From Marsupella aquatica (lineage: Eukaryota > Plantae > Marchantiophyta): DNA of 64,000 nt. Made by a program: the position numbers and the translations under genes. The notes below the pieces were generated by a model. It saw only the letters and a program-made list of their open reading frames with translations, was not told the origin of the DNA and did no database searches. Positions 11,206 to 56,792 of this stretch are shown piece after piece (positions within the stretch are counted from its first letter, which is position 1; every line of letters begins with the position of its first letter). The DNA is taken from assembly GCA_973895155.1 (NCBI GenBank), contig OZ316895.1:8730184-8794183 (forward strand), given 5' to 3'.

Positions 11206-11242
11206 ATTACGCACGAGGATCGAACTCGTAACACTATAAAAC

Positions 11243-24756: not shown

Positions 24757-24809
24757 CATCACCCCTACCAAACCTGTGCATCCTCCGGTATGCACCACAC
24801 CTAGAATCG

Positions 24810-27800: not shown

Positions 27801-28143
27801 CTGCTGGTCTCACTTTCTTCTCCACTGTTTTGTACTTGGTGTTGACCTCAACAAATTGAGACAACTCGCCATACAGCTCATGATTGATTTCCATATGAGC
27901 TTTCCCCTCTGAAAGACCTTCAATTATTTCTTTCAAAGATACTTCTACTCCTTCTTCATCTAGAAGGCCTTCAATCTCTTCACTTTCCTCTAGCAATCCA
28001 TGTATTTGCATAGTATCCTCAATCCTTGCAATTTTCTTTTTGAATTTTTTAGTAGCTTCACACACTTTCACATAAGAAATTCGACAATGCAAGCTTTCAC
28101 CTTCAAATGAGCTTGCCAACAAACTATTCACATTCCAAGTCAC
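24810..28143 (-). CDS. pol: Gypsy pol (RT, RNase H, integrase), frameshifted
   Basis: LPQGATNS, PFLDD, VDSS..A, DCLPL, ADMLSR, GHRG...CESC, TTAYNPEGNGKIER, RWRGPF; split across ORFs 27628-28143, 25637-27631 and 24810-25568. Confidence 0.92.
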
Positions 28144-28184
28144 CAGCGGGTCATTGGCGATGGCGCCCCGCCTTCCCGCATTGC

Positions 28185-30827
28185 TTAACGAGACGCCTTC
28201 CGGAAATCCTCATTTCCCTCCTTGGGTTCAGGTCCTCTCAACTCCTTCCGATTCCTCCAATGTCCAGGTTTCACTACATGAAATTGGATAACCCGCAATT
28301 CATCCCGACTCCTTACCTTTGCCATATGAGTGCCATCTGGTAGGACCTTGTACTCCATTCGAGCTTGAGTAATGTAAGGCTGCCCTAGAATGAGATCATA
28401 GGGCAAGCTATCATGCACAAAGATGTTAGTTGGTTCTATCACATGGCCAACCTTCACTGATACTCCAGGGCATCCTCCCCAAAGCATATTCTTTGAACGA
28501 TTGATTGAGTTGACAGACCATTGAGTATCACAATCAATCATCCATTGCCCAAGATCATAGATGCTTCTTGACATTAGATTCACCTCAGATCCTGTGTCAA
28601 TCAATGCTCGAGCTTTGCCCTCCATTCCTACAAGCTCTACCTCCACAACTGAGCAAGTTCTTGCCCAAAACGGCTCCAAAATGGACTCCTTGCCGTCTCC
28701 TGAATCAGAATTCTTCATAGCTGAAGCACACATGACCCACACACTTTGTGAGGCCTTGAGCACCTCTTCACGACTAATTTTTGCCATATCCTGGGTCACT
28801 GCAAATCCTGTTGTTGCTTTCGCCAATGGTTTCCACCTCTCCAATACCTCAACTCCTGACATCTTTGGTTCAAGAACTTCCTTTGTTGAAGACCCTAGCA
28901 TCTGTGGTCTGGGGATCTTCTCCGCATTCACTTGATACACTTCACACTCCACACTGGCTTGAGAAACAATTGAACCTTCTCCATCTTCATCAACATCAGA
29001 AAAAACCTCCATTCCCAAGGCATGAGGTCCTTCCTTGTAAAATCGTTTTCGTTTCACCTTTGCAAGTAATGCATCTTGAGCCTTGGAGTTCATGCAAGCA
29101 AAAAACTCCTCATTGGTGACTCCGCTCACCTCCGCTTTCCAAAACTTCTCAGCAACTTGATCATACGCAATGTGTTGCTCAACATCTCTTCCAAGGACCC
29201 AACCAGGTCCTTTCTTTTCCACCTTCTCTTTTTTTACCACTTCCATCTCCTTTGAGGATGAAGGAGTCGAAGTAGGCTCCTTTGTTGTACTTCCTCTATC
29301 TTCAAATCGAACACTCTTCCTTGTTGGGACTCTTGATGATGGCTGCAAAATAGAGGGTCCAGGCTCAACCTTTTGTTTTCCTTTGGCACGTTCTTCCAAA
29401 GGTTCCGACGACTTTCGTTTCTCCTCTACCATAGAATCCCATAGCGATCCCACTTCTGCAGTGAAAGAAGAGATCAACACTGGATCACTCCAACCTGACT
29501 TCCTCCTTACAAACTCTGCTAGTCTCTTCTTGTCTGTCTCTGTTGACGAAGAACTCCCAAAGAGGGTGTAAACATCTGCTTCATGCTCATCCTGATCTCC
29601 AAAAGCTGCTGCAATGGCTGAAGTATGATGTCCAGTCATTCTTCTCTCCACCAACACCTTCATACCGCCCTTGTTTGTGTTTACTAGAATAAGCTCTCCT
29701 GAATCATGATAAGCAAGCTTTCTTATGCCATCATGATCAATGAACTTGACTATTCTCTCTCTCAGAGCAACAGAAAGCTCCCCACATTCACGCCTTGAGT
29801 GCTCCTTACTATCACACCAAATACAATTCCAACTCCTTGCTCCGCCAATGGAACTCCCGGCTCCTGGACCACCTCTTGACGCTGGTCTTGATGCACCTCC
29901 TCCCATCTGCTCGAAGGCTTGGGTGGCAAGAATGGTAAGATTTTTCATGAGTTTAGACAACTCATCTATTTTGTCCATGCTTTTCTCACCCCTACCAGTT
30001 GTTGACTCTATTTTCTCCATTCTCCTCATAGAAGTCACAGGTGCAACCGCATGTAGAGCACCTTCATGACTCAGCTTTTTTCTTCTATGCTTTTGGCTGA
30101 CCCTAAGCACAGCAATCTCAATCTCCTCCCAAGTTGGTGGACTGGCTCCACGACTTGGGTTCATCAATTCCAGAGCAAGCTCCAACTCGTCTTGAAGCTT
30201 CTCATCAGCAGCTCGGATAAGTAAAGTAGCCTTCTGTACCTTGATAACTTCAGAACCAATCTCAGGAAGCTGATTGAACTTCTTCGTAAACTCCCTTATC
30301 AGTTCTTGAGGTCCCAACTTCTTGCTTCTATCGGCCACCCAATCAAGGAAAGATGCTTGAGTAACCCGATCTGGATCTTCAAGCTAAAATTCTTCTTTCA
30401 TCTTCAACTCAAAGACCTTCCATGCTTTCTCCCCAGTAGCTCCATCTATCAAGGTAGTAACAATTCCCTTGAGTTCAGGTTCTACTAAAGATACAAACTC
30501 CTTGACTGCAACTTCTGCATCAATCTTATGAATTGTAGCCTCCGTCCAGTACCCCTTGAGATACTTGGTTACATTTCGCCCATCAAATTCTCCTTGCTTG
30601 GTAAGAACCGAGTGTAGGTACTTCGTGGTCCTACCAAGCAACTCCTTCTTCTTGTTCTCCTCCATCTCCTTCTCCTTCATTCCATGTAAGTAAGCAGCAA
30701 TCAAGGATGAAAACCTCTCCATGTCAGTTGGATTCATCTCAGTTCCCATGATTGCAATTCTTCCCTCTTGACTTAATAATATAAATAAGTTAAGAACTGA
30801 AAGTTCCAAAACCATATCTCTCTTCAT
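28185..30827 (-). CDS. gag: Gypsy gag-protease, one premature stop near 30384
   Basis: EFDGRNVTKYL capsid-like start, zinc knuckle CIWCDSKEHSRREC, aspartic protease ALIDTGSEVN and DLILGQP. Confidence 0.9.
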
Positions 30828-30896
30828 TCATTAGAACTCAAACATGCATAAGCTAACTTCCAAATCCAGCGGTATCCCCAGTATGGTCGCCACTTA

Positions 30897-32054
30897 TGTC
30901 CGGGTGACCGTGTTTTCTAGCAATAGCATGTTGGCTCTTTTGAAGTTAACCTTGCATGCTTATAAGTTCTACACTAAAATCAAAATGATAATTCTAGTAA
31001 CAAGGGTAGTGGGTATTAAGAAAGGTTTAGGTGAAACTAAAATACTGTTAAACCCTATTTCACCATACTTGCGGACCAACACATCACAAAAATTAGTTTT
31101 CTTACGACATATGATCCTAATATCTCCAAGAGAAAATGAAACAGGAATATCATTCGGACTCCTATTCAGATCCATGACTTCAATAAAGGACAAAGATGAT
31201 GCACTCCCACTCCTCTCGGTACGACACCACTGGGTATATTATTGGCTCGTTAGAAACCATAACAGCAGTTGCAAACTGAGCTCCAAAATGATAGGTTAGA
31301 TGTTGCCTCATAGATGGTTTGTCTAAAAGATGGACTCTAATCAAAAACGGATTACGAAGGGGAAGATCAGGGATAACTCTCTCTCCTGGATTCATGATGG
31401 CTCTTCTATTCCTTTGCTATCCGGGCCAAAGGACGCCCCACCCCTATATTCCCAAAGAAACCTTATTCCCTAAGGTCCCATCTATAAATCTACCACTCAT
31501 TCCTTTGCTATCCGGGCCAAAGGACGCCCCACTACTATGTTCAAGGCACAAAAGAGCTTCACAACCTTGAATGATAAACACTGCGGAGTGAGGGGAGAGT
31601 GCCCCTCACCACTTTATTTATAGTGCACACCAAGAGGGCATGGATCAAGCCCAAGCACTTGGATGAAGGCCAAGTGTCAAACATCTAATACCTAAGAGTG
31701 TGCTAGTACTATTCATAGTTGGTGAAACTACTTTTAGTAGGTGGAACTACCATGCGTTGGTGGAACTACTATGCGTTGGTGGACCTACTATGCGTTGGTG
31801 GACCTACTGTGCATTGGTAGAACTACTATGCGCTGGTGGACCTACTGTGCGTTGGTAGAACCACTATGCGTTGGTGAATATTATTGTAGTTGGTGGAACT
31901 ACTCACATGCATTGGTGAAACTTCTATAGTCCGTTAATATAGCTAAAGAAGTTTAATAAAGTTTAAATTTAATAATCTAACTACTAAATTACTTATATAA
32001 TCTATAGCATATTAAAACAAACAATTTTTTATAACTTAAGAGAAAATCACGACA
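30897..32054 (-). repeat. 5' LTR of gypsy element
   Basis: Direct repeat of 23599-24756; followed on the minus strand by the PBS at ~30875-30892. Confidence 0.97.
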
Positions 32055-32180
32055 CCGTGATATCAATGTATGCACGATGGTTTAGTGCTCTTAGCCCGAG
32101 TATTGCTTTTTCAGGTTCCTCCGAACAAAGGAGCCAAAGCCAACCAATCAAAGCGGAAAACAAAAAGAACCAAGAAATTT

Positions 32181-34738: not shown

Positions 34739-35309
34739 CTGCGCATTACAATAACACTAGAATAAGTAAACAAATTCTTATGAAACTAGGACTTTTATAT
34801 GGACCTTCAACACAGTGACGGACCAAACGAGAAGTGTGACCACACTTCTTGTTTTGCCCGCGGCGAAAAAAGTTTCTAAGGCAAAAAGTCCTGGATACGG
34901 AATTAGTATTCCCCCCTAAAACTAGTTTTTCGGTTTCAAAAAATGGGAAAAATCGAAGTGAATACGAAGATGGGATACGGCGTATCCCATTTCGGATCCA
35001 ACTCCGGAATTCCAAAAAAAAAAAACCAAACGTAGTAAAAGTGCCGATATTGTTTTACCTGTTAAGAATATTCCCAAACAATTCTTCTCAACAGTAACAT
35101 TTAACCGACTGCGCTGCAACTGCAGTCAAATACTAACCACGGTCAGGGAGAAAACTATAAATAGGAGATCCCTGCTTGAAATTTTTTTGCTCATTTCTTC
35201 TCGCTGTCTATCCTCTTCCTCTCAACGAATGCCCACCGTCTATACAAACTCGTATTCCCCGAAAATCAAATTTGACTAACAGGTGAGAATCTTCATGCAA
35301 ATGGCGAGG

Positions 35310-35765
35310 ACAAATCCCAAATGGGATACGGCGTATCCCGTTTGGGATTCAACCTTCAAATGTCCAATTTTTGTTTCTGTTTAGTTGAAAAAGGAGGTTG
35401 GATGCGAAGTGGGATACCCCTCTGAATATGAAGTATCTTAGCCTCCAACTGTCAAAACCTCAACGTTGAATGCGAAATGGGATACGGTGTATCCAGTTTG
35501 GGATTCGCCCTTCAAATATCCAGTTTTTGTTTCTCTTCAGTGAAAAAAGGATGTTGGATGCGAAGTGGGATACGGGGTATCCCATATCGCATCCAACCTC
35601 CGAATAATAAGTATCTTAGTCTCCAAATTGCAAAACCTCAATGTTGAATGCAAAATGGGATACGGCGTATCCAGTTTGGGATTCAACCTTCAAATGTCCA
35701 AATTTGGTTTCTCTTTAGCTAAAAAAGGAGGTTGGATGCGAAGTGGGATACGGCGTATCCCATGT
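35310..35765. repeat. Array 1 of ~45-bp palindromes (core TGGGATACnnnGTATCCCA), ~88-bp period
   Basis: Five full copies and one half copy, inside a predicted intron (GT at 35283, AG at 35828); one more copy at 34970-34990. Confidence 0.9.
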
Positions 35766-36464
35766 GGTATCTCCCTAGAGTTTTCTTGGCATGGGAAAAA
35801 TCTTATGAATTGCTGATTGTTTCGCAGGCAAAGTTCAACTAAACATGCACTGAAGCTCTTGCTGCCTTTCAGTGACTCAAGCTTTTGCTTTCCTGGAAAA
35901 ATGACATTTTCTCTTGTGAGTCTAATGGCGGTCCAGAATCAAAACCTTGAGAAACGTGCTCGTCGATTGTATAAGCGATTAGTTGCACTCAAAGTTCTCC
36001 GTCCTGGATTAGGAGTGCTATGGACGGGAGGCGTGGATCCACATGATAGTTTGAATCCACTCCGAATAGAGTTTTGTGAAAAAATGAAGACGGAGTTCCG
36101 ATTCGGTCGAGGATATGTTTGAGTGGTTGTCTGCACTCTGTTAATTCTTCTTGTAATTATTGTCGTGATGCCCGAAACAAATATCATCGATTAGCATATT
36201 TGTGTTGTCGGATTTGGAACGAAGATCCTTGGGTTAACTTATTGCGTTGAATCTTCTTGATTAGTGTGTAAGTATTCAGGTGAACGTTCTTGGGTCAAAA
36301 CTTTTGTGAATATATTTTTCTTTTGATCAAAGAAATAAAATCAGTTTTTCTATCACTGTTTTGTAGGTTGCTGAGAAAGTGCTCACCATCTCATTTATTA
36401 CTCCAGGTATCCACTCTTATTTTGGAATGGCCGTCACTGAGAACCCTGTCTTTACAGGTTAGCG

Positions 36465-36965
36465 ATGTCATTCGACATAGAGAAGAAACAAATTCAGCAG
36501 AAAAGTGGCCAAAGGGAATCCAGATTGCTTTTGGATGGACTTCCTGATGAGATTGTTGAAACGTTCATTTGACCCATTTTGAAAGTTTGTTGTATAGAGG
36601 ATGAATTTGATTCCTCCAAGAACCAAGCTGATGAAAGATTGATGCGATTAAAAACAATGGTGTGGCTTGGATGCACCTCCAAGAAATGGAACCAGCTCGT
36701 AATTTGTACACGAGTCTGGGGTATTCTTAGACTAGCAAGAAGCCAGTTTGAGGAAGAAAATGAAATGCTGACAAGCATTCCCGATGGAAAACCCCTTCAG
36801 AATGTTCATATTGAAGCTTCTGTTAGGATGGAAACACCAAATCTTCCTCCAATCGATTTCTTAGGTTTATTTTCAAGGTCTGACCTAAATCGATTTCAAG
36901 AACACTGGCACAATCTTGAGAAAGATGAGCAAGCAAGGCTCTTGGAAATGTATGGGGAAGCTTAG
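36465..36965 (+). pseudogene. F-box-like protein with one premature stop (36570-36572)
   Basis: MSFDIEKK...LLLDGLPDEIVETFI*PIL...LGCTSKKWNQLV fits the F-box pattern LP.EI...I...L...V(C/S)K.W; TGA is likely derived from TGG. Confidence 0.55.
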
Positions 36966-37249
36966 AGCTTTATTTTGTGGCACAATTCTGGATGAATAAA
37001 GAGTTTTGTGATTCTACCCTTACATCAACCCCATTCGCTAAGCGTAAAATCTATTTGGTTTAATCCAGGGACGTGGGGATATGCCTCTCAAGTCCTCTCA
37101 AGCGAAAAAAGTATAAATAAACCTCTGGACTCCAACCCTCCGCTTTTGGATTCACCTTATCGCCTGTGTATACGAAGGTGATAAAGTATAAATAGCAGTG
37201 CCTGGTTAGAAAGTGCACGCTCATTTCTTTTCCTTCTCAACTTCTCCTT

Positions 37250-37866
37250 GCCGTATCCTCCTTTGCATTCAACTCTATTCTTTGCACTTCTGTTCAAAGA
37301 ACATAACTTTTCAATGTTGAATACGAGATGGGATACCGCGTATCCCATCTCGCATCCAACACCCTCTTCTTAGTATTCCATCGGAACCTCCTGGCTGTTT
37401 GTTGACTTTGAATACAAAATGGGATACCGCGTATCCCATTTCGGATTCAACTACATCTCTCTGGTCTTTTATTGCAGAGTACTAGAAATTCCTGATGTTT
37501 AGGGTTTAGCGCCTTTGCGGAGGATCATTGCAAAAAGAGCCGCATTGGATGATGTTGGATACGAACCGGGATACCCCGTATCCCATTTCGCATTCAACTT
37601 TCTATTTTTTGTTCTTTGCATCAGACTAGGGAATTGTTGACGTTGGATGCAAAGTGGGATACCTCGTATCCCATTTCAAATTCAATTCCCTATTTTTTGT
37701 GTTTTGTATCAGACTCGAGGCAATTGTTGAAGTTGGATGCAATGTGGGATACCGCGTATCCCATTTCGCATTCAACTCCCTATTTTTCATTCTTTGCATC
37801 AGACTCTCGGCAGTTGTTGATTTTGGATGCGAAGTGGGATACTGCGTACCCGATCTCGCATTCAAC
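37250..37866. repeat. Array 2 of ~45-bp palindromes upstream of the ParB-MTase start codon
   Basis: Six full copies, e.g. 37316-37360 GTTGAATACGAGATGGGATAC-CGC-GTATCCCATCTCGCATCCAAC. They lie between a TATA box (~37187) and the acceptor TTTACAG at 37911. Confidence 0.92.
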
Positions 37867-37915
37867 TACTTTTGTATGTTTACGCCCTGGTTCTGTGTCA
37901 ATCTTTTACAGGAAC

Positions 37916-40900
37916 ATGTCGAACAAATCAAAGTCGTCTGGTTCGACCGAATCTTCACGGACGTCTATCGTCGATGAGATTTGGAAGAAGGACCTTTACA
38001 CCGAGGAGAAACTCGTGAGGAATAGGTGGTACTTCAGGGATGCCCGGGCGATGGATATTCACAGAGCCTATGACGGTCCAGCGGTGTGGTTGGTTATAGT
38101 TAAGGGTAAAGACCATTGCCATTATGGATTAGTCGTGGACACTGGGGAGGCAGATATCACCGACGCAAAAACCAAACAGCTGAAGAAGATTCTAATGTAC
38201 CTTTGCATTCTTCCGAACAATGCCTTCACTGTAGTTGTCCTCAACTACGAGAAACTCGATCGGGTCTCGATGAACACATTTCCTGATGACCCGATCTGCA
38301 AGCTAATTTCGGACAAAGATTGATGACTTTTCTTATTGGTGTTTGAAATTTGTCTTGAAGTCTTGGAGGGTTGTTGAGGAACTTACCAAGGTAGCATATA
38401 GGTCCGTCATTGGAGCCAACTTTGGCGTCAAAGAGCGTCCTCTGAAGTTGAAAGTGACGAAGCCTACCGATCCGGCTTCGAAGTCAGGGGAGATGTCTAG
38501 AACACCCTCGATAAAGGAGAAATCTGCCATAGTTTCTTTTAAGGAACCGGCAAAAGGAAGCTTGCAGATCAACTCTCCGGGGAAGGTTCTAAAGCAGCGG
38601 TGTCAGGAGAAGCTGCTGGCAAGAAGAAATTGGATCGACGTGACATCCAGAAGCGCGCACCATCTGCACCCGGAAGTGTTGTCTCATCTTTGGTCCCAAC
38701 AATTTCACAAACACCATCTCAGATTCCTTCAACTTCATCAGGTGGGCCTTCTCTATCATCTAGGGGTGTTGTGAAAGAAAAGAAAAACGATTCAACAGAT
38801 ATCACCACAGCTTTGCAGCGGGAAGAGACACTTGTGGTTCATGAAGAAGTGTCTCGGTTGATGGAGACCAAGAGAGTTCAGAAGACAATTGTTATTCTGA
38901 AAACAACTAACCTGCTTCTTGTTGACGATATTGACGACAAGAACTCAACTTTGGTTCGAACAGTAGATCGGTTGCATGTGGAGAACATCAAGACTTTGAT
39001 GAAAATGAATCCAACAAATTTCACCACGCCATTTGTCTTGTTTGTGATCCCCAAAGACTGCCCGACAGTGACAGATTGGGACCCAGAAAAGGCAACAAGC
39101 TGGAGATATCGAGTGATTGGAGGTAATCACGGTGCTCGGGCTAAGAGAGAATTGTATCAGGCTTATGGGAGAGAGATCTTCAATGAACTCCAAGCTTGGG
39201 TGTATGCTGGTCTCACAAGGGAGGACATTCAGAAACTTAGCATCCAACATAATATTGATCAGGAGTACAGGAAAAAAATGAACAACATTGATCAAATCCG
39301 AACAATGCATAAGATTTTCCTTGCCAGAGGTATGGCAAAAACCAAGGAGACTAGAGAAGCATGTGCGATGGAGGTTTGCCTCGACGGGTTTTTTCCGGGG
39401 GACGCCACAAGCCTAAAGAAGCATGAACCTCTCTTCCAAATTGCGTTTAGGTCGGGTAAGGTCTGGGAACTCCAAGACCAGATCTTTGAGATGTGGAACA
39501 AGTTGGAGATCAAAGGGCAGAATAAGTAGAAGTCATCGATCAAGAAACTCAAGAAAAAAGGAAAAGCGCAGTCGATTCCAAAAGCTTTGAATAAGCTTGC
39601 AGGGGGCCTTACCCTGACACCTTGGAGAGCAATCCAGGGAATTGAACACGACCAATTTTTGGAGTCCCTTCTTCTACGAGTGAAGGACCGGATGATCTCT
39701 TTGGAGCAGATGGCAAAAGAAGCCAAGAGTTACAAGAAACTTGTGAAAATCAGCAAGCTTTTTGTTCAGTTATCAGGGCAGCCACACTGGGCGACTTGCA
39801 AATAAATGTTTCCAAAAGAAATAGAATCTGCCGAGCTCGAAAGATGGAGTGGGAAGTTGTCCGATGTGGTATGTTCTCCCCTTCCATTGATTGGACTTTT
39901 CTCGGATTCACTTGTGTTTATTTGATGTTTGTGATGTTTCAATGAGGTTTTGCTTGGTCGAATGCAAAGTGGGATACGGCGTATCCCATCTCGGATTCAA
40001 TTGTGTTTATTTGACGTTTGTGATGTTTCAATGAGGTTTTTGCTTGGTCGAATGCGAAGTTGGATACGCGGTATCCCATCTCGGATTCACTTGTGGTTAT
40101 TTGACGTTGGTGATGTACCAATGTGGTTTTTACTTGGTCGAATGCAAAGTGGGATATGCGGTATCCCATCTCGGATTCACTTGTGTTTATTTGATGTTGG
40201 TGATGTTTCAATGTTGTTTTTGCTTGGTTGAATGCGAAGTGGGATACGGGGTATCCCATCACGGATTCAATTGTGGTTATTTGACGACGATGATGTTTGA
40301 ATGGGGTTTTTGTTTGGTTGAATGCGAAGTGGGATATAGGGTATTCCATGTCGCATTTGTCGTCCAGATTTGATTGTTTAAATGCCCAAATGGTTCTCCC
40401 CATTGTCTTTTCTCTGGATTCCTTTAACAAGTTTGCGTTTGCAGTTGAAAACTTTTTCGAAGAAGAAGAACAATGATGCAATTGGTGCCGATGCGGTTGA
40501 GAAGCCTTCGGAGGAGCTGACTTCGAGTGTTATTCCCCGGGGTTTAAGAATTATGTTCAAGAAGCGATTGAGAACTACAACCGTCATCGTGGGATTGAAA
40601 CGGTTGAAGCAGAGTCGAGTGACCATCGATGGAAAAATGCTGATGGAAATTTCATCAGATATACATTGCATTGTGGAGATGTCAAGGCGCTGGATAAGTT
40701 TGTAGAGAAAAGGAATTACACACTTGCAATTGGAGACATTCCCTATGGATTCAATGCGCTTGGCTCCAAAAATGATGAGGTCCCATTTTCAGAGAGTGAT
40801 ATTGTGGATATGGTGAAGTGTTTTGCCAAGGTGACAAGTTCAAAGATGTGGAGGTTTGTTGTGATTCACTCTTTGCAGCAAACTTGGTCTGTGATGAATG

Positions 40901-41538
40901 CCCTGGGAAAAACTTGTAATGCAGGTGTAGAGGCTGGAATTTGGGAGAAGCCAAATGTACATGCTCATCCTTCGGGGAATCGATTGGCTTGGGCTTTTAA
41001 AAACTGGTCAATCGGATATTATCACGAGAGTGGTATTAGGACCAGAGACATGTACAATTTTGAACATGATGAGAAAAGGGTAAACATCATAAAAGTCCCT
41101 TATGTTACAAAGAAATGTGTAACACCATTGGGGGAAATAGTGAACCCTTACCAGAAGCCGATAGCTCTAGCAGATTGGTTCATTCAACATTTTAGTGAAG
41201 CAGGGGATTGGGTTGCTAATTTATGTGCGGGGAGTGGTTCGACCTCATGCGCTGCCTTGTTAGGGAAACGTCCGGTGACAGCCGTGGAGCTCAGTTCAAG
41301 CCAGGTGGATTGTATCCGGACCCGACTTGTCACGCTGGATGAATCGTGGGACTTGAATGATGAAGCAACAGAGGAGGGTACAGGACCCATAAGCTTCAAG
41401 GTTCAACCACCTATTGGTGGTACTATGAGCACCCTGACCACTGGAACTTGCATCATTACAACCGCGGAGGAGAACAACAATGATGAGGATAAAGAGGATG
41501 AAGTGGAACATGAAGCTCCGACACTTGATCTTGGCTAG
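37916..41538 (+). pseudogene. ParB/Srx-like domain fused to a beta-class (N6-adenine/N4-cytosine) DNA methyltransferase
   Basis: ParB-like RTVDRLHV...PFVLFV...YRVIGGNHG...QAWVY in ORF 38600-39529. Intron 39869-40444 (phase 0). MTase LHCGD, motif IV-like LAIGDIPYG, then YQKPIAL..WFIQHFS..GDWVANLCAGSGST..AAL.GKR...VEL (motifs X-I-II), i.e. beta order. Lesions: frameshifts at ~38317, ~38580 and ~40535, stops at 39527 and 39803. Confidence 0.85.
39900..40360. repeat. Array 3 of ~45-bp palindromes (89-90-bp tandem units x5) inside the ParB-MTase intron
   Basis: GTCGAATGC(A/G)AAGTGGGATACGGCGTATCCCATCTCGGATTCA(A/C) repeated at ~39957, 40047, 40137, 40227 and 40317. Confidence 0.93.
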
Positions 41539-41665
41539 TTCCTTGAGGTGTAGACTTTAGTTTAATTAGTTCTCTCATGTTGTATCTATTGATCCAAACT
41601 TGTGAAATATTGAGGAAGATTATGATTGGACTATGTTCTTATTTCACAAAGTAATATCTTTGCAG

Positions 41666-42576
41666 GAACCAAAGGAGGATTTTTTATTGAAACATGTTCT
41701 GCATAGATTCTCACACAATCCTTCTAGTGGGTTTCTTTTGGACAATAAAATATTGAGCCAACTTGAACCCGGTCAATATTTGGGTGATGAAATAATGGAA
41801 TTTTACCCACAATTAATAACCGAGGAACATGGAGATCTGGCTCCCTCAGTAAACACATTATCCTCTTTTTTTTACCCTTGGCTTATTTCAAGGACTGAAA
41901 CAGAACCAGCTGAGACCTTGTTGGAATCAATTCAAAAGATGCAGAATTATTACAAGCCACCATTTTCCCAAATTGAGGTCATTCTCATGCCAATTCACAT
42001 GAACATGCACTGGAGTCTGGTTGTAATATGTTTGGATCGGATTGAATCTTCGATCAAAATGTATCATCTAGACTCTCTTGCCGGTCTATACTCAACCCAT
42101 GTAATTGGATCAATACTGAGCAGGTATGTATATATTCTATTATATTTTTTCCATTTTAAATTATTTATGTGGTATATAAATATAAACACTTTGGACTAAG
42201 AACTTGAATGATAATATGCAGATATTTTACAATGGAATGAGAATTATTTTTTGGAAAAGTTCCAATGGGAGTTGTGGAGATTTACAATCCAATGGTAAGG
42301 ATTTGAAAAGTTATTTCAACTTTTATTTAGTTCAATTATTAAACACTTTGGACTAACTTTAAGATTCTTTCTCAGGTACCTCAACAACCAAACAATTCAG
42401 ATTGTGGTCTATTTGTTCTTCAAAATATGGATGAAATCAGAATTCAATGGCATATTACACAATGCCTTGATGCACAGTCTTTATTTACCAAAAAATGGTA
42501 CAACTCTAAAAGAGCATGTAACCTTAGAAAATTCATTCGAGATCAAATTCTAAAATTGATGCATGTACCTGTTTAA
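41666..42576 (+). pseudogene. Ulp1/SENP (peptidase C48) SUMO-protease domain, three exons; probably the C-terminus of the ParB-MTase gene
   Basis: LEPGQYLGDEIMEFY, LSSFFY, ILMPIHMNMHWSL (His), YHLDSL (Asp), VPQQPNNSDCGLFVL (Gln/Cys). Exons 41666-42123, 42222-42294 (stop plus frameshift) and 42376-42576. Confidence 0.88.
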
Positions 42577-42587
42577 GGACATCAATC

Positions 42588-45500
42588 TCAATCCTTTGAG
42601 TGTGCAGAACCTCGCTCTAATATAGCAGACTCTATAATTTTTTTAGTTTTTGCTGCTATTTGATTAGTACTTAAAAGCGCAAAGTTGTATGCATACACCG
42701 CTGTTGATGATAGAACTAGTTCATCTTGGAGAAGTCAATTAGATATATTATCTTTCTCTGAAAAATATTTCCCATCAATAGCAGACTCAGCACTTGCCTC
42801 AGTTGTGTACCATGTGATTTTGATTCTCTCAGGAATGTCTGCAGTTCTTGTCAAAATCTTTGACACCTTTGCCATCCAAAACAACTTGCCTTCTGGATCC
42901 TTGTGTGCCGCTACACATATCATGGACCACTTATTGTTAACTTCCATATCTCTAAAATCTCCAAATTCAGCTTGCTTTCGTCGAGGTCCGGAGTACATAA
43001 TTCTCTGTGGTCCAGCAACTTTGTCAACCAAAGTTGGATCAACACCTTCTTCAACAAGTTCATTTCCCACCCTTGGAAGTAGTTGTGCACCTTGATTTTG
43101 TTGCGGCCAAACCCACTCAAATAACCACTCACCTTCCTCTAGGTGGTTTTTGATAATATCTTTTTGTTTCTCAAAAAAACTCATCCATCAAAGTTTGTCT
43201 TCATTGTCAAAGTAATTGAAACCTTCCTGAATAGTTTTTTCATATTTCACCAGAGTAGTTAACGCACCATCTGTATTGGAAGAATCATGGACATCATCCC
43301 TCTCAACACCTTTTGCTGACTTCAGTGACATTTGTGCAGCAACCCACATTCTTGAAGTTGGAATGTAATTGACAAATGTCACTGCATCTCCCCAATCCTG
43401 GGTCGTGAAAAGATATTTCACGTGGAATGTTGTCTCTTCGTTTCCATCCTCCATGACTCGTTTGAATCTGAATTGTCTTTGAAAAGTTATGAGATTGAGA
43501 TCTCTCAAGACTCTACCTGAGACTCCCTTCTCATTTGGCTGGTCGGTTTCATTGACAAATTTTCAAAAACCGGCTACTTCATCCATAAATATGATCAAAG
43601 CTTCAGGTGAATATGCTTGTCGAATAATATCCTCAAGAGTCTCCAAGCGAAATGCTTTGTGCTTGTTTAACCTAGATGAAAATTTACTAAACATCTTATC
43701 TATCTGGTCATGTGTATGACCGACCAACAAGAAACCCACTTTAATCTTGTCAAAAATCTTCAAATCTACTAACATGTGAAGATAAGCCATCAAGAATTTA
43801 TTATTGTTTCCCTAGTGCTATTATCTAATTGAAGATATAACACTCTTGGTAATGTCCCATCCCATGTATTCAATACATTTTGAATAACATGTATGGTCAA
43901 GTTTGCATCATTATGGATATTGTGATATGTCAAAAATACTTTTGCTGCAAGGTTCCTGTTGAAGATGAGACAACCTACAACATGTATTGGAATGAAATAT
44001 TTTTCATCCATGTTCTTCGGACAATGAAGAAAATGTGGTAGCTCTGTTTTCTTTTGATCCATACCATCTATACAAATACCCAAATACTTGTTGGGCTCAT
44101 CATAGCATTTTTTACGATGCTTGGCTAACTTCATCCTTTCCAATGATTGTACTTTTTGATGCTCCATAAGGGCATTGATTTACTTTCCTGAAATGATACA
44201 ATAGCAATGAATTAAAAATCAATAACTAAGGATAAACTTTGACAAATATTGAAGTACATGTCATCAAATTAAAGTTGAAGGTTATAGTTAGTGGAATTTA
44301 CTTTTATCCTCTTCAGTTGTTGCTTTGTCCCGAAGAGCCTTGAATTCAGTACAAGGACCACAAGTAGAAAATCGACTCCTTTTAGGAATTCGTACATTTG
44401 GAAACTTTTTTTCCAAACATGCAAAAAATAAGAATATGTAACTTGTTGTTCTTCTCGCAACATTGTTTCAGCTTCAAAGATTCCATGTATCTCTTGCTTT
44501 GTCCAATTGTCTGGCAAGTGATGAATCTCTTTATGGGGAAGACTATCCATATTTTTTTCGAAAAAATCTTTCAACCATTCCACTAGGTTTAGAAATGAAG
44601 GTGAGTCTTCCTTACAAAAGGTATCTCGTTCAATCCTTGTAAACATGTTTGCATGGATTGTTGTCAATCTATTATTACCTAAAGAATATAGTTTCTTGAA
44701 TCCTCCTCTACATATAGGTTGTCCATTTACACTATATCCACGAGAAGTACTACTACTGTTCATGATACAACCTCGTAGCAAAATATTTTTCTGCAAGTGT
44801 TTAAGACCAAAATAATACTTGCGTTGTTTTGAGCATTCCTTTAGACCCAGAGACCTCAAGCAAAACTTGTCACAACAGGGATACTTAAAAATATCTGTAA
44901 TTTTGCGTTTTTTTAGATTTGCAATGGTAAGTCTATCTTTTCTAATCATCTGATCTCTGATTTTTTTGCTGGGTCTTGTCACCTCTACTCTATCCTGAAT
45001 AGTGTCGGGAGAACTTACCCCCCCACTATTTTCTAGTGAATTAGAATTCAAAACAAAAAGATCTTCTGTAGAGTTGTTTCCACTCTCCACATTTTCTGTA
45101 ACTGTTTCATGAACAATCTCACATCCCAGGATCTCTTCAACAATATTTGAGATTATAGCAGTCTCTCTATCATTTGCAGCCGCCTCTGATCTCTCTTCAG
45201 AGTCTTCAGAAAATGTAATAGGTGTTCGGAGATTTCTAGTTTGAAATCTTCTAATGATATTCACATCTTCAGTCACAATACCGCCCACTTGTCTCTAAGA
45301 CTGTAATCCCAGCCTAGGTGATTCTTCTCGACTTGAGGGCTCATCTTGACCATTAAATAATCTTTGGACAAGTTTCAATTTAGCATGTGCCCTTGAATTT
45401 TTGGGCCCTCTCTCCGGCAGCTCACTTCACAACAATCTCCAAGGAATTTTCTGGACACTAGATCTCTTCCCTCTTTCGTTCTGCACTTGCCGTCCAATGG

Positions 45501-46453
45501 AAGATCCAAAAACCTCACACTGCATCCTCGCCAAAGGGCTTCGAAGCCCCATGTTGTTAGTTTGACCATTCGGTGAAATAACCGATGGGAATACCGATTG
45601 GGATCCATGGATCCCAACTCGTATTCGTCCTTCGGGACTTTGAAGTGAAAACTTTCATAACAGTAAGTGGGAAAGTAAGTGGGAAAGTAAGTGGGAACTG
45701 GGATCCACGTATCTCATTTCGCATTCCATCATCGGAACTCGGGTTGGAAGTCCGCAAGACCAGTGACTCGGGCACAGGATTCTGCAAAATACCACGAGGG
45801 AATACTAAGTGGGATCCATGGATCCCACTTCGTATTTGACCCATGAAATTGGTACTGAAGGAGACGAAGTAGGCAATTTGCATTCACCGTTTCTCAACAT
45901 TCGAGTAGGGAATACCAAGTGGCACGGATCCCACTTGGTATTTGACCCACCAAATTTGGCTTTGAGGCTGCCCCTCCCTGCAATTCCGGCACATTCGGAC
46001 TCCTCATTCGCTCAAACTGTGATTGAACACTGGACACAGCTATCTTCACTCCCGGAGAACGAGACATTGGAAAAACCAACGGAGATCTTCGGGCCTACAT
46101 GGTAACGTTGTTCTTGGCATTAAAAACTGGGGTCTTCGTCTTTGAAGATCTGTCGGGGTTCGCGGAGAACCAGGTGTCTCTGTCGTAGGAACTACATTAG
46201 GCTTCTTTACAAGTAGACGTCGTTTAAGAGGTTTACTTGGAGAGACATAGTATGAAATCGGAGCACCCACAACACTCCTACAAGACTTTGAATCGGACTC
46301 TGATTTCTCAGATTCCGAGGAAAATGAAATCTCTAGCACTACTCTCTGTGAGGCTGGTAATTCATTCATCAAACGAGATGGAATAAATTTTCGAACAACA
46401 TCTGGCAAAGATGCATCTGAACTGTAAATTGACTCATCACTTGAAGATGCCAT
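42588..46453 (-). pseudogene. Sola-like / DUF7869-type DDD transposase, spliced and frameshifted
   Basis: Cys clusters CCDKFCL, ICRGGFKKLY, FSTCGPC; catalytic motifs GICIDGMDQ, LYLQLDNSTRE, FLLVGHTHDQID. Probable first exon MASSSDES at 46453; stop at 42588-42590. Confidence 0.85.
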
Positions 46454-46992
46454 AGATAATCAAACAAGGGTTGTATAGGAGTACGTATTCCTATCCAACA
46501 GAGATACTTCAGATTATAGTATTCTATGAAAACAACTACTCAATAGTGAACGAACCTCAAAGTAATCGCGAGAAATGACGATGAAAAACAAATGCGAGCT
46601 CTTCCTTTTATAGTTTTTGGGGGCATTGTACACGTGGCATTCCCTGATTGGTCCGTACAAGGGTTTTTTCAAGTGAGAGTCTGTCTTTTCCAGGACTGCT
46701 GAAATTTAAATTGTAGATTTTCGAGGAAGTCGCCGTGGATCCGAGTTGGTCTTCAAACTGGAATATCAAGGTATGCGATGCAAAAACTTCAAAATGTAGA
46801 GGTTAAATACTAGATCCCATCTAGTATTCATCCTCCTATTTTCCCGATGAGTTTTTAGACTTGCAAAAAAAATGGGATCCATGGATCTCAGTTGGTATTC
46901 ATGTCGAAAGATCTCCTGATGCAAAGTTGCAGGTGGAAAACATTGAGGTTGAATACGAGAGTGGATACTTGGATCCCGTCTCGTATTCATCA
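45585..46992. repeat. Variant palindrome family (core TGGGATCCATGGATCCCA) around the transposase 5' region
   Basis: Copies at ~45589-45626, 45801-45836 (perfect 24-bp AAGTGGGATCCATGGATCCCACTT), 45911-45942, ~46800-46830, ~46872-46900 and ~46948-46990, with the same GAATAC...GTATTC outer arms as arrays 1-3. Confidence 0.8.
46606..46651 (-). promoter_or_regulatory. Putative Pol II promoter of the transposase (CCAAT, G-box, TATA)
   Basis: On the minus strand: CCAAT (46651-46647), GCCACGTG (46638-46631) and TATAAAA (46612-46606), in order, ~150 bp before the ATG at 46453. Confidence 0.45.
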
Positions 46993-47590
46993 TGCGTTAT
47001 GGGCTAAAAAAATTCCAAACATGTTGTCAGGTTAACTTAACTAATTGTGTGGATCGACTGTAGTCCGCGGTTAGTTTTTCGCAGTTTTTCGGTTTACCGC
47101 AGTTAAAATTTCAAATATTTTTAACCCGAGGTTAAATGGAAGCGTCAAGAGAATGATTTGGTGCGGTTTTGTCAACAGTTGAATCCGAAATGGGATACGC
47201 CGTATCCCATTTTCAGTTTGCCATTTTGAAGGCGAAAATGAAATCTTGTGTTTTCTTCATTTTGTTTGACTCTCGGATTTAGCTTTTAGAGGATCACGTG
47301 AAAAGCATTGTTTTTCTAGGTTTTGGAATTTGCCCTTTTTTTAGATGTAGTGTATCGGAATTCTGGATTGTAACAATTCTTTGTTTTTGTGTCGACAGTA
47401 TCTCAATTTGAAATCCGATGTTGGATGCGATTTTGGATTCATCCTCAAAATAGCGTTTTTGATCTTAATTTTAGTGATTTTTTGCCATTTTTCGCGAAAT
47501 CAAAAACACACTTCTCGTTTGGTGGTCATACTTCTTGTTTGGTCCGTCACTGTGTTCTTCTTTGTCTTGCAACATTATAACATTTGGTAC

Positions 47591-50500
47591 CTGTTCATCA
47601 TCTTCAGTTGCTTGGGCAACTGAAACTTCTTTGCAAGATCGTTTGTTGTGGCCAACCTTTCCGCACCTGTTGCACGTACACTTTACATTACCCCGCTTCC
47701 TTTTCTTAGGTAGGATCTGAACCATTGGGAGGCCACTCGCAGAGTTTGCACTTGGAAACGGAATGCCTCTCTCATTGTCATCATCCATTGGATATCTGAG
47801 ACACAGCCTTCCTGTTGGATCAAGATGGAGGTCCTCCCCATTCCCTAAAGCCCTGGAACAAGTTTAATTCCCCATGAATTCTTACCATTCTATGTCGCCC
47901 ATTCACTATAGCAGGCTCTGGAGCATGACAACTTAAGCTCAATGGAAGGTGAGTGGAAACAAAGCTAGGTAATACACCATCATAAAGTAAAACCAAAGAC
48001 TGTGTCCGCCAGCATTTATGAAAATGCCTAGCCGGATTCTTTCCTGTTTCATCATCCCATGCCAGCATATGTTGGCATGGCCAAACCATCTCCTGCAGCT
48101 CCATGCAAGTGCACTTTGGTTTTGGTGACAAAGTGACAAGATACTCCTCACTCCCTGTTGTAGTCTGAATTTTGGCACTGGATTGACCATCACTGAATAC
48201 CTGTAGCATGACAGTATGAAATATGAAGCGTGAGACAATCCATCCTCCACATGTGGTGAAAATGTTCGTTACAAAAGGAAAAGAAAGAGCCAATCTGCAC
48301 CTGGAATTGTTGGAAGTTCTGCAAGTTGATATTGTATCGTAGTTGAGCTGGTTTTGACAGTGGTTCTTGTCTGCATGCAACCTCTATTCTCCTGTCTTTA
48401 AACTTTGTTGAATGTACACCCAAAGAGCCACCAACAACTTTCCAGGTGCTAGTAGACGGAATGGTAATAATCCAGAATTTGCTTGCTCGGCTGGATTACT
48501 TGTGACCTTACCCATGCTAGGGAGTGGGAATGCATGCCTGGCATAACATTTCACATCCAGACCGCGGATGTAATGTGCTACATCAACTCCCTTGCCGGCT
48601 ATCAATGAACCAGACAGTCGATCTAGCACAGACTCATATCTAAATTGAAAGAGACAGAATACATGAGTGACAATGTTTACAGAGACAGAATACATCAAGC
48701 ACAATGTTTGAATAGGCAAATTGCTTTCATATTGGTCCTAGTGAGTGTATTTACTTACTGGTGCACATCATTGGCATAGACACATCCGTAGAAGAATTCA
48801 CTTGCTATTCTACCATGCCTGGTCTTCACGTTTGCCCTCAAATGATTTGCGCACTGTGCATGGATCTTTCCTACTGTCCAAAAATAATAAATTAGATTTT
48901 GTACTCGAGTTAGCACAGTATCATCATAACTCTCAAATTTGACAGAATTAAGCAATCTAAGTGTGGAAGGGTGTTACCTGGCCAAATCTGACTTACAGCA
49001 ACAGTGAGACCCTTTTGACGATCTGACATGATGACAATGTCTTGACTACCAATGCCATATACAGCTCTGTCCATTAATTCTAGAAACCAAAGCCAGTTCT
49101 CTGTGTTTTCAACTGGTGCTACTCCATAGCAAAGTATGACACCGTTTGAGTTCCCATCCAGCTAGGCATGTAGCTAAAAATAGTTGAGTTGGATATTTTC
49201 TATTCTTGGTGTGACAAGCATCTAAACTAACCATCGGCTGAGTATAGTTAAGTGCTTTCCTGGTGGCAGATGGACATATGAATGCTCTGCAAAAAATGGT
49301 GGAGTCCTCCATAGTGCACCAATGTGCAACACAACCAGGGTCTGTCTCCCGAATCCTGTCAATCAATGTTGGGATCATCTGAAAAGATGATTTCTGTGAG
49401 CCAGCGGTCCAATGCCCTACAAGATCTTTGCCCCGCCACATTTGCTGGTAGTTACTTCCTCGCTTGTAGTCACCTTGGAAACCAGACAACAATTCCTTCA
49501 CAGGCATTTTCAGATTTCTGTGAGCCAGCGGTCCAATGCCCTACAAGATCTTTGCCCCGCCACATTTGCTGGTAGTTACTTCCTCGCTTGTAGTCACCTT
49601 GGAAACCAGACAACAATTCCTTCACAGGCATTTTCAGATTTCTGATGATTCTTGGAGCCAATGTTACCCCCAACCATGCAGACTTGTGAGTAGGAGCTCT
49701 CCACTTGTGAATGTGAGCAGCACAAGTATGTGTTAGTTCACATACAGTGATAATATGACCCCCACCCTTCACTCTACTGCAACGTACTCTGAAAGGACAT
49801 TCCTCCTCTGAGTAAAGCAAGTCTTCTGGACCTGGTTGAGAGGGCTTAGATCTGGACAACTATCCACAAGCTCCAGTTGCAGATGGCTTCCTAGTTTTCT
49901 GTTGACCAGGTTTACGTGGGTGTTGCGAACCAGGTAACCAAACGCTAGTGTGTTGGACTATGGACTTTGGTCTGTTGTGCACAACTCTTCCTTGTGTAGA
50001 CAAAACAGTATTTTTGTGCACAGTTTGTTGTACAGATATAGGTGCATTTTGGTGCACGGATTGTTGTGTAGACAATGACACATTTGTCTGCATGGTGTTC
50101 GCTTGAATGGCTGAAAGCGGTGCACGAGGTTGCTGACGAGCAAGAGTGATCTGATTAATGGCATTATGAAATTGACGATCTTCAATCTGCAAAACCCCAT
50201 GATTGTACACACCAAGAATTTGAGCAAGTGATTGTAGGATGTCCCAAAATAAAAAAGGGTGTGGCATTGGTGGCAGTGGCAGCGGCAGCACACACCTCTG
50301 CTTGACTGCGATATCTATTCTCTTGTTGTGTAGTTTGCTGCAATGTCTGAGACCTTGGTCCTTTCGATCGTCTTCCACTCCAATGGCCATATCTGCTATG
50401 AAACTCATGCTCACCTTCTGACTCTTCATCCTCTTCCTCAAATTGAAGCTGCCACTAGTTGGTTCCTCCGTAGCATGTGAACCAATGTTGTCATTGTCAC

Positions 50501-52592: not shown

Positions 52593-53852
52593 CGCTCTCT
52601 GTTGCAGATTTCTCTCTCTTGCAATCCTCAAGTACGTGTCATCATCTCTCCCTCTCTTATGCACGCCCATCACTATAGCAATCTCATGTCGGGGTCGGCG
52701 TCGAACTTGGATTTCACTATGGAAATGTAGATGGGATCACAGTATATTGTCAGCACTTTCATTCTGCTTTGGCTTGAATTGCTCTAATCTTATACACTAG
52801 TATTCTAGTGTGCAAAAGTGTTGTGCAGAACTAAGGTGGGGTGCGGGGGGTTTTTCTTTGCCTTTGCTGAGCTGCGATTTCAACTCAACGGTCCTGTCCT
52901 TAGTCGCTTAGTGCTTATTTGTGTCTTGCAACAACTTTTTAGACCTGCGCGCTTGCAATGCTTGTACTTTCAGAATCCCAGACTTTAGAGTATACTCTTG
53001 TACTGTCAATGACTAAATTAGAAGTTATTACGCGCGCCCTATATGCTTCACTTGTGTCTTTGGAGGCTTTCGGATTAGAGGTTGCACAAAGCATGGATGT
53101 CATAGCCCTAAACTTCAAATTTTCCTGCATGCAATTCTACCTCTACATTCATGTTTCGGCAACAGGAAGAACGCAAAGGGAGCAGGTCACTCTTCCATTG
53201 ACTACTTTGCCACTGTATGTATTCAATGTACAGGACATTAGTCAAATGTGATGTACTCTATAATGTACTCCTCCACGGACAACTAATGAGCCACAGAACT
53301 GATGAGCCACACTCTGTCTATGGCACTTGCAGATCATTTTTCCACCCGTTCGAGAGCTTTCTCTTTTGCCAAGCTAGGCACAAAGAAATCATTCCAGGGT
53401 TTTGTCAACTCTTGAGGTTTGTAATCACTCAGAGCCCTCTACATTGTCATTGCTTTGTCTGGGATTTGATTTTATGTATGGGGCGTCGATTGTATTCTAC
53501 TGGCCTTCTTGCTGTGCTGAGCAATGTCCTACTGTGGACTTTTGAATTCTTCTGCTGGTTCCCCCTATTTTTGTGGCCCCCAAAATTTATAAAAATTAAT
53601 GTGTGAAAATGCTAGCCCAACAATTGTCCACCTTTAATGGCAAAAATTGTTCAGTAATTGCCTGTGTCCAATCTCAAAGTCCTAAACTTAAAATTTCCTC
53701 CATGCACACAACCCGTCTTGAATTTACAGCTTGAAATTACAGTTTCTCAAATCTTTGGTATTAATTCATAGTTTTAGTTTCTCATTCCTTGCATGCGTCA
53801 CTACGTCACTGACTCTGGCCATATTGTGTTGTTTTCTGTCGGGGTAGAAGTC

Positions 53853-54575
53853 ATGGCTCGTCCAAAATGGCCAGCACGTAGAGGCGGATCACAGGTGAGG
53901 CACCATTCCATGAGTAGACACCATCATTGGTCCAATGCACAAATTCATCAGAAAGCCGCTCAGGTTTGTGCCATTTGTGACAATGGAGGTGACCTGGTCA
54001 TGTGTGATGGCCCCTGCCTGAGACAATTCCATGTCAATTCCTGGTCCACTTATGCACCACATAATACATGCCCTGGGGTTGGGCTCCGGGGGGACCATCG
54101 GGGTGCTTGGACTTGCTTTGATTGTGCCACTAATATCAGCAAGTGTGCTCAATGTGGCACAAACGGCACTGTTGGGGGGGATCAACCAGAGCTGCGGAAA
54201 TGTCCTGACAGGTTTTGTGTTTGTTTTTTTTGTTTGACATGCCTGCCCCATGATAACTCTCTTTTCCCACTACATATTTGTCCTGCTTGTGGGGAGCCTG
54301 ATGATGACTACTGGATAGTCATGGTCCATTGTCCCAGATGTCCCACAGCCTGGCACCATGAGTGTTTACTAGCCCTTCAGGCAGAAGGGTATGCATGTGA
54401 CCGCCAAATTTATTCCCACTCTGCACACGGGGTTGATAGGTGGTTTTTGTATTGCCACCTCCATACGATTGACCCTCATTTGCAGACCCCTGCGAGAGAC
54501 CATTTGACTTGGCTATTGCTGGATGACACCTCCAGCGCCAGCAACAAAACAAGTGGATCAGCACCAACAGGCTGA
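53853..54575 (+). CDS. EDM2-like composite (triple) PHD-finger protein, intronless, CACTA cargo
   Basis: CAICDNGGDLVMCDGPCLRQFH...CFDC...CAQCG...PLHICPAC...CPRCPTAWHHECL...LYCHLHTID..LQTPARDHL parallels the PHD region of plant EDM2 (CAICDNGG, CRRCPK.YH.KCL, TP.RDH). Confidence 0.75.
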   Translation: MARPKWPARRGGSQVRHHSMSRHHHWSNAQIHQKAAQVCAICDNGGDLVMCDGPCLRQFHVNSWSTYAPHNTCPGVGLRGDHRGAWTCFDCATNISKCAQCGTNGTVGGDQPELRKCPDRFCVCFFCLTCLPHDNSLFPLHICPACGEPDDDYWIVMVHCPRCPTAWHHECLLALQAEGYACDRQIYSHSAHGVDRWFLYCHLHTIDPHLQTPARDHLTWLLLDDTSSASNKTSGSAPTG

Positions 54576-56385: not shown

Positions 56386-56792
56386 GGTCTCAACTGTCCG
56401 TATGCTAGACGGTTACATTTTTGAAATAAAGTTTTGTGTGTTATTTTTGGTCTATAAGACATTACTCCTTTTCATCCTCCAAATGTCTGGGTTTTGCATT
56501 TGGAGATGTATGGCAGTGTATGATGTACGTTGTACCATTGACTGGTCAATGACCAAGCACCTCACTGATTATAGCAAGTCTGTTATGATGTTGCTGCCTG
56601 CAGTGAGCAGATGATACGTGAGCAGGTCGGGCGCCAGCACAGAGCGGACTTGATAGTGAGTGTACACCGTGTCTGTGATATTTCCTTCATGAAACTTGCA
56701 TGTGTCCCTCCATGTACTTAGAATATGCAATTGTATAAGCCTGTCTAGTGCAAAGGGTACATAGCCAAGGTGTGCCTACGACAGTTGAAGGT

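Follow-up and report, generated by a model that had tools for sequence, protein, structure and literature searches.

Several transposable elements are described as carrying factors that bind or modify DNA. The VANC proteins bind motifs that are repeated in the non-coding DNA of VANDAL elements and differ between families (PMC5735166), C5-methyltransferases (C5-MTases) occur in retrotransposons and adenine MTases in DIRS elements (PMC5890265), and ParB-terminase loci with MTases have been named in phages, as have ParB-linked MTases in chlorophytes, chytrids and haptophytes (PMC4738411). The motif SPPY is typical of the rotifer and Marchantia enzymes that write N4-methylcytosine (4mC), as DPPY is of the bacterial N6-adenine (N6A) enzymes (PMC8885841, bioRxiv 2021.02.12.428880). 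Here we describe an element of 12,748 bp, spanning positions 34809-47556 of a 64,000-nt stretch of Marsupella aquatica contig OZ316895.1 (the whole stretch is hereafter called the window). It belongs to a 12.7-kb transposon family of many copies, is bounded by terminal inverted repeats (TIRs) and has itself decayed, and it carries, convergent with a DDD-type transposase, a predicted gene that joins a ParB-fold domain to a beta-class amino-MTase (ParB-MTase). Transposon-borne DNA modifiers are already known; the combination of ParB and a beta-class amino-MTase in plant DNA transposons appears to be new, as no description of it was found in the literature searched, which was mostly open-access.

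The element and its ParB-MTase cargo

The element is delimited by the following features:

34805..34808, no strand: left target-site duplication (TSD) CTTC (read in the sequence and in the empty-site joint in runs X1 and X2)
34809..34843, plus strand: left TIR, 35 bp (TIR match; nine X2 contigs start at 34809)
47522..47556, minus strand: right TIR (TIR match)
47557..47560, no strand: right TSD CTTC (read in the sequence; the flank is a MULE-like repeat)

The two TIRs are identical at 33 of 35 positions, the initial 20 TIR bases occur twice in the window, both times as element ends, and a 13-bp motif unrelated to the internal palindromes described below is present twice at either end. Independent support for the boundaries comes from public runs, in which contigs of X1 and X2 connect 34804 to 47557 (with four letters compatible with both sides), and the nine X2 contigs that begin at 34809 have differing flanks (agreement 0.47). 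This empty site indicates that the unit moves whole; as the flanking DNA belongs to a MULE-like repeat, what is read as the empty site could be a further copy of it, and the unit is precisely bounded in either case, the empty-site and TSD evidence referring to one insertion site. Across four runs from two studies, one of them possibly the source of the window DNA, 1,629-5,391 contigs per run cover all 30 bins and are mostly 90-99% alike, so that the entire element, cargo included, is multi-copy. The original prediction, made from the sequence of the window, had placed 35-bp TIRs and a CTTC TSD at these ends, and the runs agree with it. The repeat that hosts the insertion was seen at 47474-48383 and to the left of 34805; it contains a SWIM finger (47823-48383, minus strand, right flank) and, recognized by eye, a zinc knuckle, and read depth is high on both flanks of the element.

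The transposase occupies the right half of the coding DNA:

42588..45294, minus strand: DDD-type transposase of the DUF7869 family, broken (Pfam, homologue alignment; 5' end approximate)

Pfam DUF7869 matches two pieces of it (E 4e-24 and 5e-14), and three Asp motifs (DGMDQKK at 44068, LQLDN at 43834 and GHTHDQID at 43721), for which we infer a catalytic role, are kept in the window copy as well as across 16 aligned homologues. The prediction of TIRs, a 4-bp TSD and a minus-strand DDD-type transposase thus holds, as does that of converging stops, which lie at 42574-42576 (plus strand) and 42588-42590 (minus strand) with 11 bases between them. A search with the transposase of L006, one of the related metagenome loci introduced below, returned 154 homologues; among the 120 of these that were listed at least 47 are from Riccia sorocarpa, and Adiantum, Chara, Clytia, sea urchin and oyster are also represented. 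The transposase sequence gave no match in the PDB, and no relatives of it were found in viral contigs. Sola elements have a DDD transposase, 4-bp TSDs, TIRs of 11-1124 bp and a length of 2 to over 15 kb, and are present in moss (PMC10741241). Compared with Sola by description, the element fits as Sola-like: its CTTC TSD has 4 bp, its transposase carries the DDD motifs, and its 35-bp TIRs and 12,748-bp length lie within the ranges given there. Membership in CACTA/EnSpm, marked by CAC..GTG termini, a 3-bp TSD and Transposase_21, was rejected on the AACAC..GTGTT termini, the 4-bp TSD, the DUF7869 domain and the lack of a Transposase_21 match, although the TIR contains CACAG.

The ParB-MTase gene precedes the transposase on the opposite strand:

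37916..39868, plus strand: exon 1, with the N-terminal part, ParB/Srx-fold domain and helical region (fold model, homologues, frames of other copies)
39869..40444, plus strand: predicted phase-0 GT-AG intron with five palindromes at a 90-bp period (L001-L003 have palindromes at the same position)
40445..41538, plus strand: exon 2, beta-class amino-MTase (Pfam, fold of a homologue, motifs)

Since the intron is in phase 0 and the homologues carry ParB and MTase within one chain, the two exons probably constitute one spliced gene, to which we infer that the N-terminal part of exon 1 is also joined. The original prediction of one coding region with ParB-like, amino-MTase and Ulp1 parts is correct as to the parts; the single region was not upheld, because Ulp1 lies past the MTase stop. 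The ParB part has no match in Pfam or PHROGs and its identity was confirmed through the fold: the model of the window domain (pLDDT 84.9) matches Noc (E 1.7e-4), ParB (E 7e-4) and PadC (Z 9.6, rmsd 3.0, 99 residues aligned), and also KorB, sulfiredoxin and phage ParB proteins, the best 8 of its VIA hits belong without exception to ParB/Srx, and phage ParB proteins head the viral fold search. The helical part matches helical and winged-helix domains weakly (Z <=4.5). For the MTase, Pfam N6_N4_Mtase is found with E 3e-5, just under the cut-off, and the model of homologue P0012 is closest to CcrM (Z 21.8, rmsd 2.7, 208 residues aligned), followed by M.BceJIV (Z 21.4) and MboIIA (Z 21.0), with the N4C enzymes PvuII (Z 18.8) and N4CMT (Z 18.5) a little further down. 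Exon 2 shows the permuted order of the beta class, with motif IV (DIPY at 40735) ahead of YQKP (41149) and motif I (41218).

Sixty MTase loci were collected from metagenomes, 38 of which are eukaryote-like by introns and composition. In three of them, L001, L003 and L006, which match the window element at 65-74% of nucleotides, the MTase (50-57% identical) is convergent with the same DUF7869 transposase (46-76%). These are distinct families, 70-81% alike in DNA; they come from one assembly and may therefore represent one host. Between families the MTase and ParB regions have pN of 0.05-0.36 versus pS of 0.74-0.98 (proportions of nonsynonymous and synonymous differences), with much the same values for the transposase, and the closest pair is the same for MTase and transposase, the identities of both genes tracking each other. 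By these values MTase and ParB are under purifying selection, and ParB-MTase is, to judge from layout and identities, co-inherited with the transposase in four element families. A passive one-off capture of the cargo, Pack-MULE style and functionless for the element, would agree with the broken state of the window copy and with the F-box-like and Ulp1 frames not being shared with L001, L003 and L006. We give it almost no weight, since three further contigs, in which synonymous sites are saturated, have the convergent layout too, and since the unit moves whole, as the empty site shows. One-off capture, which the original prediction had named as an outcome that would undo its claim of MTase cargo, is ruled out for the MTase, and the cargo instead appears stable and selected, with homologues across streptophytes; the F-box-like frame may be a passive capture.

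In R. sorocarpa, MTase R1sor_020633 lies two locus tags from transposase R1sor_020635, on a contig of the same length, which would occur by chance with a probability of about 0.017 if 27,500 tags are assumed. Scans of flanking open reading frames (ORFs; 78 + 146 proteins) found no transposase beside further loci except L049, where CACTA-type DUF4218 and DUF4216 pieces (4982-6274) converge on a ParB-MTase homologue. This one contig is hinting that a second transposon superfamily carries ParB-MTase, and the layout could also be a chance insertion. Pieces of long-terminal-repeat (LTR) retroelements lie in the flanks of L033 and L007.

The MTase has relatives in 372 clusters at E <=0.001 and in 82 at 1e-10, prokaryote-like ones included. 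Thirty were looked up by name, and the 17 with a species comprise Chara braunii (7), Adiantum nelumboides (5 clusters and one extra member), R. sorocarpa (2), Ginkgo (1) and Diphasiastrum (1), with no flowering plant in this small sample. A profile search reported 6 Ginkgo paralogues and 4 unnamed proteins. Homologues are present in several copies each in Chara, Riccia, Adiantum and Ginkgo, and singly in Diphasiastrum. Among longer proteins no homologue was found, scanning viral contigs for the MTase gave one distant locus only, and no relatives of the ParB domain were found in prokaryote genomes or viral contigs. In a FastTree phylogeny of 98 rows (rows <190 aa and 9 near-duplicates dropped) named proteins of one host (Chara, Riccia, Ginkgo, Adiantum) fall together, the pattern that lineage-specific expansion would leave, and the window sequence groups with L001-L003; the deep nodes are weak, so we claim neither a donor nor an order of events. 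Loci L015, L016 and L018 form a distant MTase group, with DPPF in L016, two MTase pieces on opposite strands in L015, and AATCTGCAGATT dyads at an 83-bp period, and the gene model of P0005 (Chara CBR_g41648) contains two tandem ParB-MTase units.

Motif IV begins with D or N in 88 of 88 matches and with S in none, taking the forms DIPY, DPPY, DAPY, DFPY or similar, and D-x-P-[YFH] is present in 11 of 12 eukaryote-like loci checked, the twelfth giving no match. Because the motif is D-x-P-Y and never SPPY, and because the nearest structures are N6-adenine enzymes, N6-methyladenine (6mA) is the better prediction for the mark, and the link to 4mC writers drawn in the original prediction is not maintained. 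An active enzyme might still place 4mC, or a mark that is repressive or dosage-limiting, as a form of self-restraint. Rotifer N4CMT places 4mC on transposons for silencing (PMC8885841), and the Z-scores of PvuII and N4CMT are near that of CcrM; no homologue has SPPY, the stated N4C signature, and we consider this reading distinctly improbable.

All genes of the window copy contain stops, frameshifts or a motif lesion, with the exception of the Ulp1 triad. Compared with an intact 672-residue frame in L006, the transposase is interrupted by internal stops and by two frameshifts; the ParB-MTase gene has two stops (39527 and 39803, in exon 1, which carries the ParB signature GGNH at 39119) and frameshifts, one of them near 40534 in exon 2; and its motif I begins with N, where D is found in 64 of 65 homologue matches. 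Other copies have one-base insertions at 36455, 38554, 40534, 43806 and 44405, coinciding with frame breaks in the window copy. The MTase domain might be weak or dead catalytically, with the protein acting as a DNA-binding or scaffolding anti-silencing factor in the manner of VANC or the DIRS domains. The drift of motif IV speaks for this, as do the DIRS1 MTase domains, which are likely inactive (PMC4738411), and the fern, ginkgo and Chara gene models some of which are without parts of the MTase domain. We nevertheless regard it as improbable, given that the residues D, P and Y are kept, as are the QKP motif and motif I, all under strong purifying selection, and that a prokaryote-like relative also has DLPY.

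Palindromes and a possible role for ParB-MTase

Besides the intron, palindromes are concentrated in four regions, all located by motif scan:

34958..35778, no strand: six palindromes, half-site consensus GTTGAATGCGAAATGGGATAC, 3-bp spacer, partly at an 88-90 bp period
37316..37869, no strand: six palindromes upstream of the ParB-MTase gene
45599..45940, no strand: variant palindromes with a GGATCC core, upstream of the transposase gene
46800..47225, no strand: palindromes of both forms, variant and canonical, close to the right end

Altogether the element contains 23 palindromes (18 canonical, 5 variant), each a pair of 21-bp half-sites, which are found close to the ends, in the intron and upstream of the two main genes; the coding DNA, 55% of the element, contains none of the 23. 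Scanned over the window, the canonical form GGGATAC-N3-GTATCCC occurs 18 times inside and not outside the element at <=2 mismatches (one outside at 3), and the variant GGGATCCA-GGATCCC 4 times inside and not outside at <=2 mismatches (5 inside and 2 outside at 3), which bears out the predicted confinement of more than 20 palindromes between the TIRs. A dyad scan reported 15 exact copies in the element versus a null maximum of 1. Arms match their own partners at 282 positions versus 284.6 for shuffled partners (p 0.77), i.e. without covariation, which indicates that base identity rather than pairing is conserved, as expected of protein sites. A hairpin or cruciform role was rejected on the same lack of covariation and on the spacers of 0-2 bp in the relatives.

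The related elements have family-specific palindromes of their own, in introns and intergenic DNA: CGA[GT]AC-N2-GT[AC]TCG with outer GAAT/ATTC arms in L001, L002, L003 and L006, CGATAC-N3-GTATCG in L011 and L012, TCATG dyads in L004 and L005, and AATCTGCAGATT dyads in L016 and L018. We propose that a probably phage-derived ParB-MTase binds the palindromes of its element, writes 6mA and helps the element to stay expressed, a reading to which we give an even chance. It involves several steps: ParB-MTase would be an active DNA MTase; its mark would be 6mA, as the D-x-P-Y motif and the nearest structures suggest; the palindromes would serve as its binding sites; the ParB domain would permit loading and spreading; and the outcome would be escape from host 5-methylcytosine (5mC) and heterochromatin silencing, with methylated adenines in and around the dyads keeping the element promoters open. 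The third step would correspond to parS, the binding sites of ParB, or to the target motif of VANC.

The palindromes could instead be transposase sites, with ParB-MTase methylating with little site preference, e.g. the element when it is excised or has just inserted, comparable to a modification proposed to accompany phage packaging. All DUF7869-linked contigs (L001, L003 and L006) contain palindromes and the group with the CACTA-linked L049 none, a neighbouring CACTA element also has dyads, and packaging-linked DNA modification is predicted for the MTases of phage ParB-terminase loci (Iyer et al., PMC4738411). Set against this, the palindromes are mostly internal (5' regions, introns and the intergenic gap) rather than subterminal, and the motif repeated in the TIRs is a separate one. 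We think this explanation unlikely, though well worth keeping in view, and the transposase stays a candidate palindrome binder.

Several observations weigh against binding and methylation by ParB-MTase as proposed above. The AT-rich homologue group (L019-L033, L049, L052, L056) has ParB-MTase and no repeated dyads on contigs of <=9.5 kb. In the neighbouring CACTA element five dyads are repeated and the ORFs scanned there include no MTase, so that dyads may be transposase sites. The likeness of the palindromes does not track protein identity, as L011 and L012 (33-35%) share the GATAC-N3 core and L003 (48%) has N2. A transposase match is present in 4 of the 38 eukaryote-like loci (3 DUF7869, 1 CACTA-type), most of the other 34 being on contigs <5 kb, and the second Riccia MTase lies 101 tags from the nearest transposase listed. 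As to the protein, motif IV has drifted from DPPY to DIPY, DFPY or DAPY, and the ParB signature is GGNH (GG[NSGC]H in homologues) in place of the arginine patch, canonically GxxRxxA.

A broader picture, which we offer tentatively and hold to be doubtful, is that streptophyte DNA transposons use a phage-derived parS/ParB-like system predating land plants: a ParB-MTase sliding clamp would load at family palindromes and spread 6mA as a private mark read against host silencing, the module would have moved between Sola-like and CACTA elements, and algae, bryophytes, ferns and gymnosperms would have in it an unrecognized source of 6mA. The ParB-MTase family is widespread and annotated as "hypothetical protein" in public gene sets. 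If it is active, the search for plant 6mA would gain an enzyme, species to look in and, with the palindromes, a target that does not depend on tissue, and this disputed mark would become directly testable with long reads. If the proposal is true, it would add an undescribed route by which plant transposons control their own silencing, and a natural sequence-programmed epigenome writer in which ParB loading and sliding on eukaryotic chromatin could be tested.

Accompanying frames and neighbouring elements

Two further frames accompany the ParB-MTase gene on the plus strand:

41666..42576, plus strand: Ulp1/SUMO-type C48 protease, three predicted exons (Pfam, catalytic residues, high-depth contig)
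36441..36965, plus strand: broken ORF with an F-box-like stretch seen by eye (internal TGA; no Pfam family)

SUMO proteases are known as cargo of MULE, CACTA and Zisupton elements. Here Pfam Peptidase_C48 is above the cut-off in two of the Ulp1 exons (E 2e-12 and 1.5e-4), the residues His (42008), Asp (about 42071), Gln and Cys (42403) are present, and one TGA interrupts the middle exon. High-depth contigs connect the MTase tail to Ulp1 (945 nt) and cross the junction of Ulp1 and transposase, indicating that Ulp1 belongs to the family of the window element. No Ulp1 match was obtained between MTase and transposase in L001, L003 and L006, and Ulp1, which the original prediction counted in the module of the element, is not part of a conserved one; under the mechanism proposed above Ulp1 would be a family-specific extra that removes SUMO locally, and the self-marking and the countering of SUMO-dependent silencing put forward in the original prediction are putative. 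An MTase-Ulp1 fusion is not supported, given the stop at 41536, where no change appears among the 40 of 164 differences listed. Lower-depth Ulp1 contigs in runs X1, X2, X3 and X5 are 80-90% alike over 41759-42450 and divergent beyond, which points to further subfamilies also carrying Ulp1. The F-box gene of the original prediction reduces to the motif seen by eye: no Pfam family was reported at E 0.05-0.1, whether or not the stop was read through, and the frame has no match in L001, L003 and L006.

Elsewhere in the window, another large DNA transposon lies at 53700-63521; it is of CACTA type (Transposase_21, DUF4218, DUF4216), with NSD-like PHD fingers and twin BRCT domains ahead; a tandem array of about 410 bp in it includes the dyad CATGTCATTT-N4-AAATGACATG, and its ends were not found. 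An LTR retrotransposon at 23599-32055, with reverse transcriptase, RNase H and integrase on the minus strand, has 1,159-bp LTRs that are 99.4% identical, which indicates a recent insertion. The region 2476-14974 contains duplicated PQQ-like beta-propeller genes, 77-83% alike in DNA.

Comparison with known systems

With Sola (Sola1 of Physcomitrella) the element shares the 4-bp TSD, the DDD-type transposase, TIRs, a large size and occurrence in non-flowering plants (PMC10741241, PMC9033089). It differs in the MTase cargo, of which the literature searched gave no description, though a known Sola1 entry may hold the gene. The closest counterpart of the cargo itself is the phage gene Javan93_0016, which encodes ParB_N followed by N6_N4_Mtase, in the same order, shortly ahead of terminase genes. 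It has about 420 aa versus 700-1000 aa, its MTase is 23-29% identical, and introns and a long helical insert distinguish the eukaryotic gene from it; the two can be aligned, though weakly, at the VIGG[HN] motif (hhalign probability 12%, E 0.0025). ParB-MTase is likely phage-derived, an origin suggested by the domain order. The permuted streptophyte ParB-MTase clade was not found in the main-text parts of PMC4738411, the supplementary family lists of which may hold some of the proteins.

N4CMT of rotifers and MpDN4MT1 of Marchantia have the same beta-class amino-MTase fold in a eukaryote, yet they are host genes with (T)SPPY, whereas the present family has D-x-P-Y and a ParB fold and is transposon-borne where the context is known. 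The MTases of retrotransposons and DIRS elements, like ParB-MTase, are transposon-borne and proposed to self-methylate; those are C5 or Dam/PCIF1-like enzymes of retroelements, and this one is a predicted circularly permuted beta-class enzyme of a cut-and-paste element (PMC5890265, PMC4738411). Fungal TET/JBP transposons resemble the present case in the DNA-modifying cargo of TIR transposons, in the proposed escape from silencing and in the sharing across superfamilies (here possibly Sola-like and CACTA), and differ in that they oxidise 5mC, while here a predicted amino-methyl writer with a ParB fold is found in streptophytes (PMC12730594). The VANDAL elements of Arabidopsis share the combination of an element-encoded factor and family-specific motifs repeated in non-coding DNA; binding and demethylation by VANC are experimental and its motifs are short and not dyads, whereas the present system, as read from sequence, combines long dyads with an enzyme domain (PMC5735166).

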